Shown here: positions 12,953 to 63,742 of the stretch, one piece after another | How the letters are laid out: every line of letters begins with the position of its first letter | How positions within the stretch are numbered: position 1 is the first letter of the stretch | DNA from: Escherichia coli | GTDB taxonomy: Bacteria > Pseudomonadota > Gammaproteobacteria > Enterobacterales > Enterobacteriaceae | Reading direction: 5' to 3' (one strand) | DNA: 64,000 bases | Assembly: GCF_036507355.1 (NCBI RefSeq) | Contig: NZ_AP027878.1 | Program-made: the position numbers and the translations under genes | Notes under the pieces: model-generated | Database searches by the model: none | What the model saw: only the letters and a program-made list of their open reading frames with translations | What the model was told of the DNA's origin: nothing

Positions 12953-12965
12953 TAGTTAACGAGAA

Positions 12966-12991
12966 CCCCGGCAGCTGCCGGGGTTATTTTT
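12966..12991. terminator. Intrinsic terminator between lyz region and pro
   Basis: CCCCGGCAGCTGCCGGGG palindromic stem followed by TTATTTTT. Confidence 0.65.
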
Positions 12992-25374: not shown

Positions 25375-28287
25375 ATGTCAAAAGGGTTCACATTCGAAAA
25401 GAACTTACCGCATCAGAAAGCAGGTGTCGATGCGGTGATGAACGTTTTTGTTTCCGCGACATCTCATCAGGAGGATAATGTTTCTATTCGCCTGTTAGTT
25501 AATCCAGAATTACGGCTTACTGAACAGCAATACTATAAAAATATAAAAAAAGTTCAGGAACTCAATGGTATTGAACATGTAAAAAATAATTACGATGCTA
25601 GAAGCAACGTAATTGATGTTTCTATGGAGACAGGTACAGGTAAAACGTATACCTACACTAAAACAATTTTTGATCTGAACAAATCATTTGGCATTAATAA
25701 GTTTATCATTATTGTTCCTACTCTATCGATCAAAGCTGGAACAGTGAACTTTTTGAAAAGCGATGCGTTAAAAGAACACTTTAGAGATGATTATGAGCGT
25801 GAAATAAAGACTTACGTTGTTGAAAGTCAGAAAAATGCCGGTAAAAGCACAAAATCGTATATGCCTCAAGCTATACATGATTTTGTTGAAGCTAGTAATT
25901 TCAATAAGAAATATATACACGTTCTTGTTATTAACACGGGAATGATTCACTCTAAGAATTTAAATTCCACTTATGATGTTGGCTTGCTTGACAATCATTT
26001 TGATTCTCCCTTTTCAGCTCTTGGTGCGGTAAAACCATTCATTATCATTGATGAACCACATAAATTTCCTACTGGTAAAAAGACATGGGAAAATATAGAG
26101 AAGTTTAATGCTCAATATATTATCCGCTACGGTGCGACCTTTAGTGAAGGCTATAAGAATTTAGTTTATCGACTTACAGCTGTGGATGCATTTAATGAAG
26201 ACCTTGTTAAAGGTATTGATGCGTACATTGAGGATATTGTTGGTGATGGTGACGCCAACCTAAAGTTCATTAAATCTGATGGGGAAGAAGTTACATTTGA
26301 GCTAAATGAAAATAACAAGAAAACTTTATTTAAGTTAACAAAAGGTGAATCTCTATCTAAGACACATAGTGCTATTCACGATTTAACTCTTGATGCCTTA
26401 GGCAAGAATACAGTAGTGTTGAGTAATGGTATTGAGCTAAAAATTGGTTGCTCAATAAACCCCTATTCTTACGATCAGACACTTGCTGACAGCATGATGA
26501 GGAAAGCTATCAAAGAACACTTTAAGTTAGAAAAAGAGTTTCTGACACAAAGGCCACGCATAAAGCCTCTTACTCTTTTCTTTATTGATGATATTGAAGG
26601 TTATCGTGACGGTAATAATATTGCCGGAAGTTTGAAAGCTAAGTTCGAAGAATATGTTTTGGCAGAAGCTAATGAACTGTTAAAAATAGAAAAAGATGAG
26701 TTTTATAGTAACTATCTTGAAAAAACAGTTAAAGATATATCTTCCGTTCATGGCGGTTATTTTTCAAAAGATAACAGTGATAAGGATGATAAAATCGAGA
26801 AGGAAATCAACGAAATCCTTCATGACAAAGAGCTTTTGCTGTCTTTAGATAATCCACGTCGTTTCATTTTCTCCAAATGGACGTTGCGTGAGGGATGGGA
26901 TAATCCTAATGTCTTTCAGATCTGTAAGCTCCGTTCGAGCGGTAGTACCACATCCAAGCTTCAAGAGGTAGGGCGCGGTTTGCGTCTTCCTGTGAATGAA
27001 TACATGTGTCGAGTGAAAGACCGCAATTTTACCCTTAAATATTATGTCGATTTTACAGAAAAGGATTTTGTTGACTCACTTGTTAAAGAGGTCAATGAGA
27101 GTTCTTTCAAAGAAAGGGTTCCAAGTAAGTTTACTCAAGAGCTTAAGGAACAAATCAGGGCTCAGTATCCTGAGCTTTCATCCAGAGCACTAATGAATGA
27201 ACTTTTCAATGATGAAATCATTGATGACAATGATAATTTCAAAGATTCAGATGCCTACAGCCGCTTAAAATCCAAATATCCAGCAGCATTCCCTATAGGA
27301 GTGAAACCAGGTAAAATCAAAAAAGCTACTGATGGAAAAAGACGCACTAAAATGCGTGTTGGTAAGTTCAGTGAGCTGAAAGAACTATGGGAATTAATCA
27401 ATCAAAAAGCGGTGATTGAGTACAAAATAAACAGTGAAAATGAGTTTTTATCCATTTTCAAGTCATTCATGCTCGAAGAAACAGAACGATTTACCAAATC
27501 AGGCGTTCATACTCGCATTGATAAAATTTACATCCACAATGATATGGCAATGTCGAAAAGCATTGTTAGTGATGACGATGACTTTGCTAAGCTAAACACA
27601 ATGAGTTATCGAGAGTTTCTCGATAACTTATCACAGACTATTTTTGTTAAACACGATACTTTACATAAAGTTTTTTGTGATATAAAAGACACTATTAATA
27701 TCACTGAATACCTGAATATTCAAACAATCAGAAAAATTAAATCTGGTTTTAGTAAGTATTTGTTGAACAATTCGTTTAATAAATTCAGCCTCGGATATAA
27801 TTTGATTTCGGGTTCAATTCATCCCACAAAGTTCACAAATGCTGATGGTAAGCCTCTAGACGAGGTATTATCAAGTGATCTTGGTGTATTACAGGATAAT
27901 TCAAAAGCACCATTAGATACTTATCTTTTTGAAGAAGTTTTTTATGATTCAGAGCTTGAAAGGCGTAATATAACAGATAGAGAGATCCAGTCTGTTGTTG
28001 TTTTTTCAAAGATACCGAAGAATTCTATTAAGATCCCGGTAGCTGGTGGATACACTTACTCACCCGATTTTGCTTATGTTGTAAAAACAGCAGAAGGTGA
28101 TTATCTTAACTTTATCATTGAAACAAAAAACGTAGATAGTAAGGATAGTTTACGGCTTGAAGAAAAAAAGAAAATTGAACATGCCCAGGCGCTTTTCAAT
28201 CAAATAAGTCAGTCTGTTAAAGTTGAATTCAAAACGCAGTTTGCTAATGATGATATTTATCAGTTAATCAAGAGCGCATTACCATAA
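25375..28287 (+). CDS. res: Type III restriction endonuclease Res (EcoP1I-like)
   Basis: 970 aa; METGTGKTYTY Walker A, IIIDEPHKF DEPH box. Confidence 0.85.
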   Translation: MSKGFTFEKNLPHQKAGVDAVMNVFVSATSHQEDNVSIRLLVNPELRLTEQQYYKNIKKVQELNGIEHVKNNYDARSNVIDVSMETGTGKTYTYTKTIFDLNKSFGINKFIIIVPTLSIKAGTVNFLKSDALKEHFRDDYEREIKTYVVESQKNAGKSTKSYMPQAIHDFVEASNFNKKYIHVLVINTGMIHSKNLNSTYDVGLLDNHFDSPFSALGAVKPFIIIDEPHKFPTGKKTWENIEKFNAQYIIRYGATFSEGYKNLVYRLTAVDAFNEDLVKGIDAYIEDIVGDGDANLKFIKSDGEEVTFELNENNKKTLFKLTKGESLSKTHSAIHDLTLDALGKNTVVLSNGIELKIGCSINPYSYDQTLADSMMRKAIKEHFKLEKEFLTQRPRIKPLTLFFIDDIEGYRDGNNIAGSLKAKFEEYVLAEANELLKIEKDEFYSNYLEKTVKDISSVHGGYFSKDNSDKDDKIEKEINEILHDKELLLSLDNPRRFIFSKWTLREGWDNPNVFQICKLRSSGSTTSKLQEVGRGLRLPVNEYMCRVKDRNFTLKYYVDFTEKDFVDSLVKEVNESSFKERVPSKFTQELKEQIRAQYPELSSRALMNELFNDEIIDDNDNFKDSDAYSRLKSKYPAAFPIGVKPGKIKKATDGKRRTKMRVGKFSELKELWELINQKAVIEYKINSENEFLSIFKSFMLEETERFTKSGVHTRIDKIYIHNDMAMSKSIVSDDDDFAKLNTMSYREFLDNLSQTIFVKHDTLHKVFCDIKDTINITEYLNIQTIRKIKSGFSKYLLNNSFNKFSLGYNLISGSIHPTKFTNADGKPLDEVLSSDLGVLQDNSKAPLDTYLFEEVFYDSELERRNITDREIQSVVVFSKIPKNSIKIPVAGGYTYSPDFAYVVKTAEGDYLNFIIETKNVDSKDSLRLEEKKKIEHAQALFNQISQSVKVEFKTQFANDDIYQLIKSALP

Positions 28288-39799: not shown

Positions 39800-40063
39800 C
39801 TATTTCTTTACGGCATCATCTTTCTGATATGCCGGATCGCTCCCTTTTGGCAACTGGAGGCTTAACTGCCGGTAGTGCCGTAGCCGTTCCATGAAATAGG
39901 TGCGCAGATTCTCTGGTTGCTCGCGGGCTACCTGTTCAGCTATGACAGGTATGTTCAATCGCTCTTTGTACGCCACACCGCTGGCAGCCAGATCAACGTT
40001 AACCTTATCCCGTTCTTCCTGACTTTTAGCTGCAATATTCCAATCGTACATATCAAATCCCAT
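39800..40063 (-). CDS. hot: Hot, homologue of DNA polymerase III theta subunit
   Basis: 87 aa; [36 protein letters not shown] matches HolE theta. Confidence 0.85.
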
Positions 40064-40500
40064 CCAGAATAATTGAGTAACGACTATTATTTAACCAGCA
40101 AAGTAACTTTTAATTTTTTTTCTTCTCCCATTGATTTTTGTGCACAGCTTATCTGCCTTGCCGTGCGCAGAATCAACTTTTTTCTTCCTGATTTATCCAC
40201 AAAGTTATGCACTTGCAAGAGGGCCATTTTCTAAATATTGTGATGCTTCACAAATGAAATGAATTTTGATTAATGAAGATAAGGAGAAAATTTGAGATGC
40301 AATCATGACGTTAATAGATAGGGTCTGCATTACAGACCCCACCCGCATCAAGGAATTAGCCGTTCCCTGATGTTGTTCCGAAAACATGTGCCGTAAGCTC
40401 ACGTTAACGACTTTCTTTCACCGAATCCAACTATATAAGGGTTGGGTTTCTACGTCAACGTGAGCAAGTGCTCCTTTACATTTGACAAGGAACCACCTTA

Positions 40501-40638
40501 ATGACTGCTTTTTTTCAGTTCCTGAGTGCATTTTTAGATGCGCCTGTTATTAGCCAGATTCTGGCTATTATCCTCATCATCGTTTTGATTTTGCTTTTAA
40601 GGTCAGTAAAAAATGGAATTATGCACTGGCTTACTTAA
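40501..40638 (+). CDS. Small hydrophobic peptide (45 aa), hypothetical membrane peptide
   Basis: AAGGAACCACC RBS then ATG; MTAFFQFLSAFLDAPVISQILAIILIIVLILLLRSVKNGIMHWLT; followed by a 19-bp perfect palindrome. Confidence 0.3.
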   Translation: MTAFFQFLSAFLDAPVISQILAIILIIVLILLLRSVKNGIMHWLT

Positions 40639-40713
40639 TGTTTCAGTGAAACATTAAAATCTCCTTGATGTGGAAACAATAATTTTCTGTATGTGCTGGT
40701 GGGTACCTGTAGT

Positions 40714-41076
40714 TCAGCTTTCGTTGGCATTTAACTTCGTCTTTGCTTTCTCCACCAGCAACTTCCAGATGCCTATTTCATTAGCAGCCGCCTTGATGGC
40801 GGCATAAAAAGCATCTTGCTGATCGTAACGCTGAATCTGTTTTTTCAGTTTTGCCTCCACCAATTTAATTTCATTACGTGCTTTCTGAAGCCGCAGCGCC
40901 GCCCGGTTACGTCTGTTCTTGTATAGCGCGTTAATCTCTGACAATTGCTTTAATTTACCAGCCTGACTGCGGATTATCGCCTCTCTGACTTCTGCCGTGC
41001 GTCTCATCTGATCTCTTAAGAGTTCACCGTTTTCGATAATTCTTTCAAGGTGTTTGATGTGATCTGCAACTCTCAT
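40714..41076 (-). CDS. Hypothetical coiled-coil protein
   Basis: 120-aa ORF, last gene of a minus-strand operon. Confidence 0.45.
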   Translation of the reverse strand: MRVADHIKHLERIIENGELLRDQMRRTAEVREAIIRSQAGKLKQLSEINALYKNRRNRAALRLQKARNEIKLVEAKLKKQIQRYDQQDAFYAAIKAAANEIGIWKLLVEKAKTKLNANES

Positions 41077-41408: not shown

Positions 41409-42142
41409 CGAACTATCCGGAATGTCCGGATAGTTGCCAGCCTCGTAACCCAGGGATTAGCACTCCAGCTTTCTTCGCCGTAGATGGATTCCCACAGGCG
41501 CTGGAACGCAACCTTGGCCATTGCGAAATCCCCCTTGGGAGTAAGGAATGTTCCCGGGTGATCAGGAAGCAAACTTCCAGCAGGCGGAACGCCCTCATCC
41601 CTTGCATCGCATTCGCTGATATCGTTCAACCGTTCAACGCGCACGTTGGTAATTTCCAACAGAATGCGTGATGCCCATCGCGGCATGTGAATTGATGGAC
41701 GCCACCCACCATCAAACTTTTCATTCACAGTGTGAGGTTTCCAGTCGGCATCATCGGGTATCGACCATAAGCCGTAATCACCAGGTTTTTGCTCGCAACT
41801 GGCCCGATAAATCCTTGCTGCGTTCTTCTCATCGCCACGACAAAGGTTGTCGTTCCAGTCCACACTGCAACCATCCTCATTGCCTAATATCGCCCATGTT
41901 TCACGAACCCAAATTCGATCGCCGACGATACCAAATGGGCAATTGAAAACACTGCTTACACCATCAGCCCCGTACCACTGAAAACCTGCACCAATTTTTC
42001 TAACCATCACTGGTGCTTCTGGACCAACTTCCGCAGGCTGATTTTTCATTATCCGCCGCGTCTGCGTTTTCCTTCCTTCGAGGATGGCCCGGACCATCTC
42101 ATCGTTGAAAATCATGCCGCGCTCTTTCACTTCGCCTTTCAT
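41213..42142 (-). CDS. ASCH-like domain protein (C-terminal third uncertain)
   Basis: 309-aa ORF; N-terminus FNDEMVRAILEGRKTQTRR and ...NPWV resemble ASCH/PUA-like proteins; tail beyond NPWV overlaps next ORF. Confidence 0.45.
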   Translation of the reverse strand: MKGEVKERGMIFNDEMVRAILEGRKTQTRRIMKNQPAEVGPEAPVMVRKIGAGFQWYGADGVSSVFNCPFGIVGDRIWVRETWAILGNEDGCSVDWNDNLCRGDEKNAARIYRASCEQKPGDYGLWSIPDDADWKPHTVNEKFDGGWRPSIHMPRWASRILLEITNVRVERLNDISECDARDEGVPPAGSLLPDHPGTFLTPKGDFAMAKVAFQRLWESIYGEESWSANPWVTRLATIRTFRIVRCQRKERASPVNVSELSRMFIANWLTASTIQRSSVLAPSNYEKELAVFWATLLRQIIINKPRKVT

Positions 42143-57965: not shown

Positions 57966-60220
57966 ATACCCAAAACGTCATGAGCTACACCTCGAGTGTC
58001 CCCCTTACAAGACACAGAACGTCTGGCAAAAAGAGGTTCCACTCTGAAGCCACTGTCATGATAAAGCTCTCTGATGTTTGGCGCGCCACTGTTAGTAATG
58101 AGAACCTTTGCACCTCGACGATGAGCATCCGTCAACAGAGACACCAGGCGTTTTTGCTCTTCAAACTTAAAGTCATGACCGGAATAGTTCGTGAATCCCT
58201 CTGTATTTGGAAGCGGTTCATACGGCGGATCGCAAAAGATGACATCTCCTTCTCCGGCAGCTTCAATCACCGCTGCAAAATCACCGCATACAAACTCAGA
58301 CCGCCCTTCCGCACCGAGGAAGGCTTCCATCTCCTGTAATGGGAAATACGGAGTTTTATACTTCCCGTAACCGACATTGAACTCACCGGCCTGGTTGTAA
58401 CGCGTCAATCCGTTAAAACAATGTCGGTTCAGGAACAAAAACGCCGCTGCGCGATGTAAATCATCATAGACTTGTTTGTTAAACGCATTCCGTACTGCCA
58501 GGTATCCTTCCTGTGTGTTGTAGTCCTGGAAGAAACGATGCGCCAGTGTGATAAGTGAATGCGCCTCGCGTTGCAGAGTCTTGTAAAAGTTAATCAGGTC
58601 AGCATTCACATCATTTAGCAGATTTTCCTGGTATCCGGCATTCGTGAAGACAGCTCCGCCACCGACAAAAGGTTCGATCAGGCGCTTCCCTTCTGGCAAA
58701 TAGCGAAAGATTTGTTCCAGAACACCAAATTTTCCACCAGCCCATTTGAATATGGACCGTTCGAATTCTGCCGCTGGTTTAACTTTTCGCTCTTTTGTTT
58801 CACTTCCTTCTTTCTGCCGACATACGGCCTTAGTAATCCGATCGCCAATCCAGCGCATTACTGGTATTGCCATACTATTGCCGATCGCTTTGTAACGCGG
58901 TCCGTCAGCTGCAAGCATCGCGGCCTCTTCTTCGCTTAAATCTGGATAGTGATTGCGAAGATATGCCAGTTCATCTGAATTAACTTTTTTACGCTTTTCC
59001 GTCGGGATCAACGTATGCCCATCAGGAAAACCTTGCAGCCTTTCACATTCGACAGGGGTAAGACGGCGGACAGCTACTTCTGCGTTTCTTACTTCATAGC
59101 AAACAGCTGTTGGATTTTTAGCCATTAGAGATGGTGAAGTATTCTTAGTTGCAGCATGTTGTGTACCGCTCATACGCTCAGGAAAAGCCAATGTAACAAG
59201 ATGCTCATGGCTTTCTTGCTCACGTGCCCGCAATGTACCATGCCCTTCTGACCAAAAACCTGCTCCTGTGCTGCTAAAAACGGCAAGGTCAGTGGCATCT
59301 TTAAAATCTCTTGCCTTTACTGTCGATGCGGTTTCATCGTCAATATATTCCCCAAATGCTGCCATCCTGAAAGCGTTTACGGCTTTCGTCGATTTCATAC
59401 TGGGTGGCATGTCAGCGTGTAGGCATGGATTTAGGCTTTCGCCACTGATTGCAGCGCCATTTGCAATAATGGCGGAAGCGATTTCCTTCTTTTTTCGCCT
59501 CGGCGCAATATTCCGGCGCACGCCTTCGAACTCAAAAAGTACCGTTGCGGGATCGAGGTCTGTTCGAGCACTTGCGACAACAAACACGCGTCGGCGTCGT
59601 TGTGCCACTCCGAAGTATTGGGCATCAAGGATTCTCCAGGCCACCTTTCGCTGCGGTCCATAAATACAACCACACTGCGGCCACTTTGGAGCATGGCAAC
59701 CGGTTTTGCCATCCCACCGCCAGAACGCGTTACTTTTTCCTGATTCAGGTCGATCACCTGGTTCAAATGGCGCATCTTCTCCAGCCAATCCGGCAAGGAA
59801 ACATCCGAAGGCGTTATCTGCCGATGACAGGACTCCTGGGACATTTTCCCAGACGATAACTGTCGGTTTGAGGAAGGACTCAGACCGTTTGTCGTCAATT
59901 GCATTTGCAAGCTCCACATACTTCAAAGTTAGCGCGCCGCGTTCATCATCAAGCCCACCACGTAAGCCCGCGATACTGAATGCCTGACAAGGCGTACCCC
60001 CGACGAGCACATCAGGGGATTCGATTTCCCCAGCCAGGACTTTTTTGGCAAGTTTTGTCATGTCGCCAAGGTTGGCGACATGGGGCCAGCGGTGCGCAAG
60101 AACGGCAGATGGAAAAGACTCGATTTCAGCAAACCACACCGGACGCATACCCAACGGTTCCCAGGCAATACTCGCGGCTTCAATTCCACTGCAAACAGAT
60201 CCATAGCACAGCTCTTTCAC
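57956..60220 (-). CDS. dmt: Dmt, bifunctional DNA methyltransferase (C5-cytosine N-terminal, Dam-like N6-adenine C-terminal)
   Basis: 754 aa; GTPCQAFS and VWENVPGV (C5-MTase), FCDPPYEPL (DPPY motif). Confidence 0.85.
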
Positions 60221-62662: not shown

Positions 62663-63112
62663 TTGATAATTTTTCTTCAGGAGGAAGACATGTCATTCTT
62701 TTCTACGTTAAAAACAGCTTTGTCTTTGAAGGAGAAACTTGCTGCTACTGGTGTTCTTGTTCTGATTTGCGCACTTGTTGGTGCTGGGTTTGCATGGGAA
62801 CGTCATCAGCTAAAGCAAGCCATGGAGAAAATTGGCAGTCTTGATCAGGCTGTTAAGGAACGTGATAAGTCAATAATGGATCTTAACCAGGCCATTGAGA
62901 CGATGAACAAAGCAGAGCAACATTTTCACAGCCAGGAAGTGAAAAATGAATCAGAACAAGCCAAGTATGCTGACAGGCAAATGGAACGAAAAGCTGAAGT
63001 TCAGAAACAACTGGTTGCGGCGGGTAATGTTCGCCAGCGTATTCCTGCTGACACTCAGCGGTTGCTCCGGGAGTCGATCAGCGAATTTAACGCCGACGCC
63101 GACAAAGGTTAA
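62663..63112 (+). CDS. Membrane-anchored coiled-coil protein, i-spanin (Rz)-like
   Basis: 149 aa; N-terminal TM segment VLVLICALVGAGFAW, coiled coil, C-terminal RIPADTQRLLRES resembling Rz C-termini. Confidence 0.45.
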   Translation: MIIFLQEEDMSFFSTLKTALSLKEKLAATGVLVLICALVGAGFAWERHQLKQAMEKIGSLDQAVKERDKSIMDLNQAIETMNKAEQHFHSQEVKNESEQAKYADRQMERKAEVQKQLVAAGNVRQRIPADTQRLLRESISEFNADADKG

Positions 63113-63723: not shown

Positions 63724-63742
63724 TTATCCACATTATCCACTG
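63724..63742. promoter_or_regulatory. Tandem DnaA boxes of plasmid origin oriR
   Basis: TTATCCACA and TTATCCACT. Confidence 0.7.

Follow-up and report, generated by a model that had tools for sequence, protein, structure and literature searches.

Among the toxin-antitoxin systems of type I described so far, those that most resemble the locus reported here are ldrD/rdlD of Escherichia coli (Ldr/Fst superfamily), hok/mok/sok of plasmid R1, and tisB/istR-1, zorO/orzO and dinQ/agrB. A folding-energy criterion served earlier for finding the antitoxin RNAs of type I systems (Fozo et al. 2010, PMC2887945), and a ribosome-standby or loading mechanism has been described for tisB (PMC8309996). Here we analyze a 64,000-nucleotide stretch of E. 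coli DNA (assembly GCF_036507355.1, contig NZ_AP027878.1; hereafter the window) and, within it, the interval between the genes hot and pmgV of a P1-like element, where a hydrophobic open reading frame (ORF) of 45 amino acids (aa) lies on the plus strand. The window is phage P1 itself or a P1-like plasmid that hardly differs from it. Over 1.1 kb around this locus, it agrees with Escherichia phage P1 (NC_005856, AF234172/3) at 99.8% of positions and with the E. coli plasmid NZ_CP063505 at 100%; it runs in reverse relative to the P1 record, in which a coordinate equals 126630 minus the window coordinate. We propose, with a probability of roughly 0.5, that the unit is a type I toxin-antitoxin-like module in which the mRNA of a membrane peptide is held in check by a cis-antisense RNA. 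In this proposal both transcripts, the translation of the peptide, its toxicity and its control by antisense RNA are what we infer; the sequence features, their conservation and the lack of conservation of the genes annotated in their place are direct observations.

The mechanism would be as follows. A plus-strand promoter with a start near 40248 would begin an mRNA of ~400-450 nt, the upstream half of this promoter (DnaA boxes and -35 hexamer) having apparently been copied from the host gene nrdA. The leader of the mRNA, ~250 nt long, would be structured and would carry a strong ribosome-binding site with a mini-ORF or bare start-stop, coupled to a 21-codon leader ORF; the mRNA would then encode the 45-aa membrane peptide and end in a palindrome hairpin overlapping the stop codon. 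From the opposite strand, a sigma-70 promoter inside the leader would make a stable antisense RNA of ~110 nt, running from ~40422 down to 40312, and its 5' tail could pair with a loop of the mRNA that is predicted to be open. A duplex formed across the leader ORF would either stop ribosomes from moving on to the peptide ORF or lead to its own cleavage; in both cases the peptide would stay silent for as long as the prophage is there. The features concerned are the following.

40116-40231, plus strand: segment of ~116 bp homologous to the upstream regulatory region of E. coli nrdA (chromosome comparison; GenBank annotation)
40193-40201, plus strand: DnaA box 1, TTATCCACA, matching the consensus perfectly and unchanged in every lineage and in E. 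coli nrdA
40205-40213, plus strand: DnaA box 2, TTATGCACT, near consensus, abutting the -35 hexamer
40213-40241, plus strand: predicted promoter, -35 TTGCAA (40213-40218), 17-bp spacer, -10 TATTGT (40236-40241)
40279-40465, strand unassigned: core of the leader, more strongly conserved than any other part of the module
40281-40286 and 40297-40308, plus strand: strong ribosome-binding site with the Shine-Dalgarno sequence AAGGAG and, after it, the mini-ORF ATG CAA TCA TGA
40305-40370, plus strand: 21-codon leader ORF, its ATG overlapping the TGA of the mini-ORF
40312-40422, minus strand: predicted cis-antisense RNA of ~110 nt, with a 12-nt single-stranded 5' tail and three stem-loops; both ends inferred
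40321-40327 and 40333-40339: GC stem-loop GGGTCTG-CATTA-CAGACCC, the last stem of the antisense RNA
40397-40465, plus strand: predicted mRNA structure, outer stem GCUCACGUUAACG / CGUCAACGUGAGC enclosing a hairpin at 40423-40449
40430-40458, minus strand: predicted sigma-70 promoter, -35 TTGACG (40458-40453), 17-bp spacer, -10 TATAGT (40435-40430)
40487-40491, plus strand: Shine-Dalgarno sequence of the 45-aa ORF, AAGGA or, in the divergent lineage, GAGGA, with 9 nt between it and the ATG
40501-40638, plus strand: 45-aa ORF for a predicted single-pass membrane peptide, MTAFFQFLSAFLDAPVISQILAIILIIVLILLLRSVKNGIMHWLT
40635-40657, plus strand: palindrome, a perfect inverted repeat of 11+1+11 nt overlapping the TAA stop (40636-40638)
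40663-40667, plus strand: CCUUG, a tentative anti-Shine-Dalgarno sequence in the 3' untranslated region
40683-40688, plus strand: U-run, conserved as UUUUCU or, in the divergent lineage, UUUUUU; it lies 26 nt past the hairpin and may be the mRNA 3' end

Conservation of the probable peptide gene

The module was found only in P1- and P7-like elements of Escherichia, Salmonella and Shigella, and nearly all copies are on plasmids: We recovered it from 13 phage records and ~250 plasmids, and of 5426 complete E. coli genomes 215 carry it (~4%). The copies fall into three lineages, P1-type (98.5-100% nucleotide identity), P7-type (~96-97%) and a divergent lineage (~78%). In the divergent lineage the module still adjoins hot, and downstream of it lies a type I restriction-modification gene or hypothetical genes where P1 has pmgV; in P7, hot is replaced by an IS903-flanked sequence and the module is kept at 96-97% identity. 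Since homology between the lineages stops near 40705 and the neighbors differ beyond that point, the module appears to be a unit that has boundaries of its own. Directly 3' of it, the plus strand carries a perfect Chi site, GCTGGTGG (40695-40702); the divergent lineage reads GCTGGTGA there.

No further lineage was found by tblastn and blastn searches of phages, plasmids and E. coli genomes or by exact-pattern scans of viral and metagenome contigs, and no second copy of the module or the peptide is present within the window. Scans of 100,044 species genomes with the peptide and the DNA gave one true match, a P7-like fragment of 221 nt; it is a contig in an Acinetobacter idrijaensis assembly (L091), 94% identical to the P7-type module and most likely a contaminant. 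Among proteins, a word-indexed search of 5.8 billion sequences returned 2 matches, both from disrupted alleles, and with HMMER, run exhaustively over 1.84 billion representatives, there were 4, namely those two and two more disrupted alleles.

The 45-aa ORF was first picked out in a sequence-only reading of the window as a strongly hydrophobic frame with a reasonable ribosome-binding site, and the frame and the site are present as it described them, with a mean Kyte-Doolittle hydropathy of 1.62. The ORF is intact in all three lineages, with 45 codons and with start and stop at the same aligned positions, even where amino-acid identity to P1 falls to 58-60%, in the divergent lineage. Although nucleotides diverge by 23% and insertions and deletions occur on either side, the start and stop codons, the length and the Shine-Dalgarno sequence have all been kept. 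At least 227 of 228 plasmid copies align across most of the peptide. Between P1 and the divergent lineage the ORF shows 31 differences, which correspond to a synonymous divergence of 0.36 and a non-synonymous divergence of 0.19 (dN/dS 0.45); in the same comparison hot has a synonymous divergence of 0.33 and a dN/dS of 0.11. That the synonymous divergence is like that of hot and the non-synonymous divergence about half of it speaks for a real gene. Within the 18-residue hydrophobic segment, the 14 nucleotide differences are distributed 7/1/6 over the three codon positions (simulation p ~0.04), no polar residue is introduced, and all replacements are exchanges among I, L, V, F and W. Taking this together, we hold with moderate confidence that the ORF probably encodes a single-pass membrane peptide.

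The peptide can also be set against published descriptors of type I toxins. One such criterion calls for at least 10 hydrophobic residues in 15 in a protein of less than 70 aa (PMC2887945), and in the stretch ILAIILIIVLILLLR 14 of 15 residues are I, V, L, F, C, M or A; the hydrophobicity of this stretch is kept in the divergent lineage. The C-terminus is polar and aromatic, as in the descriptors of PMC2887945 and PMC8309996: It reads RSVKNGIMHWLT in P1 and KSVINRGVRWLI in the divergent lineage, with W43 and L44 invariant. As for isolation, the same source calls for at least 400 nt of free sequence upstream and 250 nt downstream (PMC2887945); here 438 nt separate the ORF from hot, enough for the upstream value if the annotated upfM, upfN and upfO are discounted, and 76 nt separate it from pmgV's end, short of the downstream value.

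In its 3' third the ORF is broken in several natural alleles, independently of one another: by an IS1 insertion at codon 36, by an extra base that shifts the frame, by a frameshift at codon 38, and by a junction after codon 31. This pattern could reflect counter-selection of a toxin or a lack of constraint. Disrupted alleles are represented by these entries.

L010 3001-3132: disrupted-ORF allele
L011 3001-3150: disrupted-ORF allele
P0001 and P0002: proteins of disrupted-ORF alleles

Putative promoter, leader and predicted antisense RNA

The E. coli nrdAB promoter is regulated by DnaA, Fis and IciA. The upstream region of the P1 promoter, both DnaA boxes and the -35 hexamer are shared with this host promoter, in identical order and spacing, whereas the homology ends just before the -10 hexamer: The downstream elements of nrdA are absent, and the transcribed region is unrelated. 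The homology is already noted in GenBank M95666 (1993) and in NC_005856; M95666 marks an "nrdA-like promoter" and a "dnaA box" on the window plus strand, so that by this record the promoter fires toward the plus strand; it points at the 45-aa ORF. This layout, with two DnaA boxes abutting a TTGCAA -35 hexamer downstream of nrdA homology, is conserved in all lineages, and over 40185-40231 P1 and the divergent lineage differ by only 15%. The -35 hexamer TTGCAA is common to nrdA; the -10 hexamer reads TACTGT in the divergent lineage. A DnaA box near the ORF had been noted from the sequence at 40191-40199. The box exists and is placed 2 nt further on, and "nearby" describes it correctly though incompletely, as it belongs to a promoter copied from host nrdA and facing the ORF. 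On its own, a lone perfect box is statistically unremarkable (two perfect 9-mers in the window versus 0.61 expected, with at least two in 11 of 100 shuffles); the nrdA context is what matters. The other perfect box in the window, at 63724-63732, corresponds to a DnaA site that the P1 record annotates in the plasmid origin oriR (record 62891-62908).

Through these boxes nrdAB is both activated and repressed by DnaA (PMC8203912). By analogy, one may speculate that expression from the P1 promoter would depend on the amount and the nucleotide state of DnaA. In the P7 lineage, the segment at ~1400-1560 of the P7 locus, which corresponds to window 40116-40190, is nearer to the E. coli nrdA upstream sequence than that of P1, which suggests repeated exchange with the host chromosome at this promoter.

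Downstream of the promoter, the core of the leader (~190 nt) diverges by 9.6% between P1 and the divergent lineage, whereas flanking non-coding DNA diverges by 34-50% and synonymous sites of hot by ~33%. The 19-mer AAGGAGAAAATTTGAGATG, with the ribosome-binding site and the ATG, does not vary among the recovered loci. The mini-ORF of the divergent lineage consists of nothing but ATG TAA, a start with a stop right behind it; the 21-codon ORF comes next, as in P1. The leader ORF occurs in four variants, all of 21 codons, and its amino-acid sequence is not conserved; since its dN/dS is ~1.0, the sequence of the leader peptide is not under selection, and at most the act of translation would matter. 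By analogy with known systems, the strong Shine-Dalgarno sequence with its start-stop or mini-ORF could serve as a ribosome-loading site. Further along, the loop CUUUCUUUCACC (40411-40422), predicted to be unpaired in the mRNA, is complementary to the 5' tail of the antisense RNA. The stems at 40397-40465 are invariant and so offer no covariation. The invariant part of the leader also holds a 25-codon plus-strand ORF, MCRKLTLTTFFHRIQLYKGWVSTST (40386-40463); it is without a Shine-Dalgarno sequence and is probably incidental.

The minus-strand promoter matches the sigma-70 consensus at 10 of 12 positions, the best match in the surrounding 1 kb, and is present in the P1 record as the predicted "PupfN." Between lineages it differs at 2 of 38 nt, both in the spacer. 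The RNA that it would produce folds with a minimum free energy (MFE) of -43.2 kcal/mol (z -5.09), the MFE structure making up 22% of the ensemble; the same interval folded as plus strand gives -28.2 (z -2.6). Among all 110-nt windows on both strands of 39900-40900, this interval is the minimum in energy and in z-score (-5.1 to -6.5). The helices also point to the minus strand: All 35 of their pairs are canonical when read on it, including 8 G-U pairs, as against 27 of 35 on the plus strand, where those eight become A-C mismatches. The GC stem-loop at 40321-40339, likewise noticed in the sequence-only reading, is confirmed by the sequence, and in the divergent lineage it carries a compensatory change of T-A (U-A) to C-G. 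Since UAUCUAUU comes next on the minus strand, we propose this stem-loop as the terminator of the antisense RNA.

Weighing the proposal against other explanations

A number of observations weigh against a toxin-antitoxin module. The plus-strand promoter matches the consensus at 8 of 12 positions, equal to nrdA itself (TTGCAA/17/TATCTT). The U-tract after the putative antisense terminator, UAUCUAUU, is poor, and this terminator was absent from the output of the terminator scan; on the mRNA, no U-run directly follows the palindrome hairpin and no canonical terminator stem precedes 40683-40688. The antisense RNA covers neither ribosome-binding site, and covariation at the locus is confined to 2 pairs. 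The coding tests are individually weak (synonymous excess, p = 0.07; BLOSUM score, p = 0.08), the chance that an ORF stays open at the divergence between P1 and the divergent lineage is 44%, and there are three lineages in all, two of them deep. Rfam gave no match at E up to 10, the peptide had no significant match in Pfam, PHROGs, NCBIfam or PADLOC, and a profile search of the PDB, LdrD structure included, returned nothing. Finally, the conservation of the leader could serve the minus-strand promoter or RNA in some other way, for example in the expression of hot.

Toxin-antitoxin modules are dispensable for lytic growth. Likewise, upfN and upfO, annotated over this locus, have been found non-essential for lytic growth by CRISPRi and upfM, upfN and upfO by deletion, with no phenotype noted (PMC10695390). 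Such screens are uninformative here because of that shared dispensability, so that this non-essentiality, which may also be listed against the module, neither supports nor excludes the role. The layout had been likened from the sequence to that of small membrane toxins, and this comparison survives in part: The guess at a real gene gains support from the conservation of the ORF, from the avoidance of second codon positions and from a structured leader with an antisense promoter, and the interpretation as a whole is partly supported.

One alternative keeps the peptide and drops the toxin. The 45-aa ORF would be a real small membrane protein of the accessory, moron type, expressed from the nrdA-like promoter and modulating a host membrane protein or the entry of other phages; the minus-strand promoter and RNA would serve something else, such as sigma-70-driven expression of hot in lysogens or an RNA acting in trans. 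The coding evidence is equal to that for a toxin, the peptide matches no toxin family, small hydrophobic proteins often regulate membrane proteins with no killing (PMC8309996), and, as said, the antisense RNA overlaps no ribosome-binding site. However, a highly structured cis-antisense RNA within a long conserved leader would be unusual for an ordinary small-protein gene, and because the P7 lineage keeps the module without hot, a service to hot is not what conserves the minus-strand promoter. We regard this alternative as possible, though unlikely.

It is also conceivable that no peptide is made, the conserved element being purely regulatory DNA and RNA, made up of the DnaA-box region taken from the host, a minus-strand promoter and a small RNA, and the ORF a by-product of T-rich sequence. 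The leader is indeed far better conserved than the ORF, each coding test is marginal, a random ORF would stay open nearly half of the time as noted above, protein databases are almost without copies, and several alleles are disrupted. Against this stand the avoidance of second codon positions in the membrane-spanning segment, the excess of synonymous over non-synonymous divergence, and the retention of start, stop, length and Shine-Dalgarno sequence in all lineages, together with the alignment of nearly every plasmid copy over most of the peptide. We consider the absence of a peptide improbable.

The palindrome allows a further reading. It had been described from the sequence as AATGTTTCAGTGAAACATT at 40637-40655, overlapping the stop, and as a likely binding site for a dimeric protein; the repeat is there and extends further on both sides, and its role as an operator, for a regulator of the peptide gene or of its neighbors, did not hold up. 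A perfect 23-bp inverted repeat is statistically unusual: Five perfect repeats in the window combine arms of 11 nt or more with a spacer no longer than 3 nt, versus 0.16 expected in first-order Markov simulations, and this one overlaps the upfM promoters predicted in the P1 record. Yet the palindrome occurs once in the window and is absent from the remaining 32 kb of P1, and upfM, the target of those promoters, is not conserved. Across 80 loci, 38 have the perfect repeat, 30 have a deletion of 1 nt in the left arm that breaks the symmetry, and the 12 of the divergent lineage read TAATGTCGCG(C/A)TGAGATATTA, so that symmetry is lost in 42. The divergent version is no longer a DNA palindrome and keeps the hairpin through one compensatory change of U-A to C-G and one change of G-C to G-U; because a G-U pair is tolerated there only, the hairpin would act in the plus-strand RNA. 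We argue that the palindrome is a hairpin at the 3' end of the plus-strand transcript, where it would most plausibly protect the 3' end or join an alternative folding, and an operator seems very improbable. The other four repeats of this kind, with 11-nt arms, are at 12964-12985, 27604-27628, 41411-41435 and 60059-60082; that at 41411-41435, AACTATCCGGAATGTCCGGATAGTT, lies inside pmgT, directly upstream of the start of pmgU.

The existing annotation of P1 offers the last alternative. All annotations of the P1 record at this locus are on the window minus strand, and the record also carries predicted promoters for upfN and upfM.

39800-40063, minus strand: hot
40086-40109, minus strand: late promoter LPhot
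40087-40227, minus strand: upfO, overlapping the LPhot promoter and the DnaA boxes
40205-40402, minus strand: upfN
40418-40531, minus strand: upfM
40714-41076, minus strand: pmgV

The isolation of the ORF on the plus strand, another point of the sequence-only reading, holds for the well-supported genes, hot and pmgV both being on the minus strand; the P1 record adds upfO, upfN and upfM on that strand. The 45-aa ORF itself is unannotated in every P1 or P7 record. It is called by the RefSeq pipeline in plasmids (WP_000123562.1) and by the authors of phage JL22 (gp107), and no mention of it was found in the literature searched, a search that the P1 genome paper of Lobocka et al. 2004 lay outside. 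The reading frames of upfM and upfN are not maintained in relatives: In the divergent lineage upfM has a frameshift and two in-frame stops and upfN has several stops, and upfN is also frameshifted in the P7 lineage. The RefSeq pipeline calls none of the three, and upfM and upfN matched no other family, upfM matching only its own PHROG, which apparently consists of P1-like copies. That upfM, upfN and upfO are genes and the plus-strand ORF is noise, as their presence in NC_005856, their homologues in P7 and the PHROG family of upfM might suggest, is scarcely tenable given these broken frames. From their sequences, upfM and upfN are probably not genes, and the three annotations upfO, upfN and upfM are probably spurious and need revision.

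P1 is a reference phage and a workhorse of cloning and transduction, and this annotation has been in place since 2004. A correction of the hot-pmgV interval would probably replace three spurious genes with one gene for a membrane peptide on the opposite strand and an antisense RNA. P1-like phage-plasmids often carry resistance genes. If the toxin-antitoxin proposal is true, they would have an unrecognised RNA-based maintenance or defence function, and the peptide would be the first of a new family of type I toxins. The origin of the promoter in nrdA hints that the genes of the prophage may be expressed in step with the replication cycle of the host, which is open to testing. In its strongest form, the idea would give P1 a second module for addiction or abortive infection, controlled by RNA and lying within a few kilobases of phd-doc; its promoter would be the one captured from the host ribonucleotide-reductase gene, and expression of its toxin would therefore be gated by the replication-initiation state of the cell, through DnaA. 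This is a long reach that we think is probably wrong.

Comparison with described systems

The candidate would share with ldrD/rdlD a small single-helix peptide with basic residues after the helix, a long 5' leader, and a cis-antisense RNA within that leader; rdlD lies 49-112 nt upstream of ldrD and does not cover the ribosome-binding site of the toxin. Homology to Ldr was considered because of an APVI..ILA motif, which is a lead only: Locally, LDAPVISQILAIILI and LAAPVIAGILASMIV of LdrD are identical at 8 of 15 positions. Membership in Ldr/Fst was rejected, as three variants of the peptide gave no match to Pfam Ldr_toxin (PF13940) at E<=10, while the LdrD control scored 6.5e-27, and two variants gave none to the NCBIfam Fst model at E<=10. 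For the RNA, Rfam gave no match to rdlD at E<=10, and blastn gave no significant alignment to the K-12 ldrD/rdlD locus. The signature tryptophan directly after the helix and the charged cluster of the family (PMC2887945) are absent; in our peptide the tryptophan comes 10 residues after the helix, followed by LT or LI, and the basic residues precede it. The candidate is also longer, with 45 aa versus 35.

With hok/mok/sok the candidate would have in common the layout of a killer gene in a prophage plasmid: a stable and structured mRNA, an upstream leader ORF, a tailed antisense RNA directed at the leader, a 3' hairpin, and a 3' sequence that may pair with a ribosome-binding site. In the RNAalifold consensus, CCUUG pairs with the Shine-Dalgarno sequence of the 45-aa ORF in 12 of 12 sequences, whereas in partition-function folding the main partners of that Shine-Dalgarno sequence differ by lineage and CCUUG is not dominant. 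Because the single-sequence ensembles disagree on the partner, a fold-back of the hok type is unproven and a possibility only; in this respect the candidate differs from hok. Membership in Hok/Sok was rejected, with no Hok match in Pfam or Rfam and no overlapping leader ORF of the mok type: Between the end of the leader ORF at 40370 and the peptide ORF there are 130 nt, which makes coupling by a mok-hok overlap impossible.

In the position of the antisense target the candidate comes close to tisB/istR-1, zorO/orzO and dinQ/agrB, since in all of them the target lies far upstream, here ~80-190 nt before the toxin start, and this distance fits a ribosome-standby or loading mechanism. In those systems, however, the antitoxin is transcribed divergently and is partly complementary, whereas that of the candidate would be cis-encoded and fully complementary; tisB and dinQ are under LexA control, in contrast to the DnaA boxes found here, and there is no sequence similarity. 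P1 itself offers a precedent in kilA, a gene that kills the host and has an antisense transcript over its 5' region, made from the internal sigma-70 promoter PaskilA (P53as), although kilA encodes a 266-aa protein under C1 control at another locus and has no sequence relationship to the module. Judged from its sequence, the hot-pmgV module is thus a credible candidate which, if functional, would represent a new family within a known kind of system.

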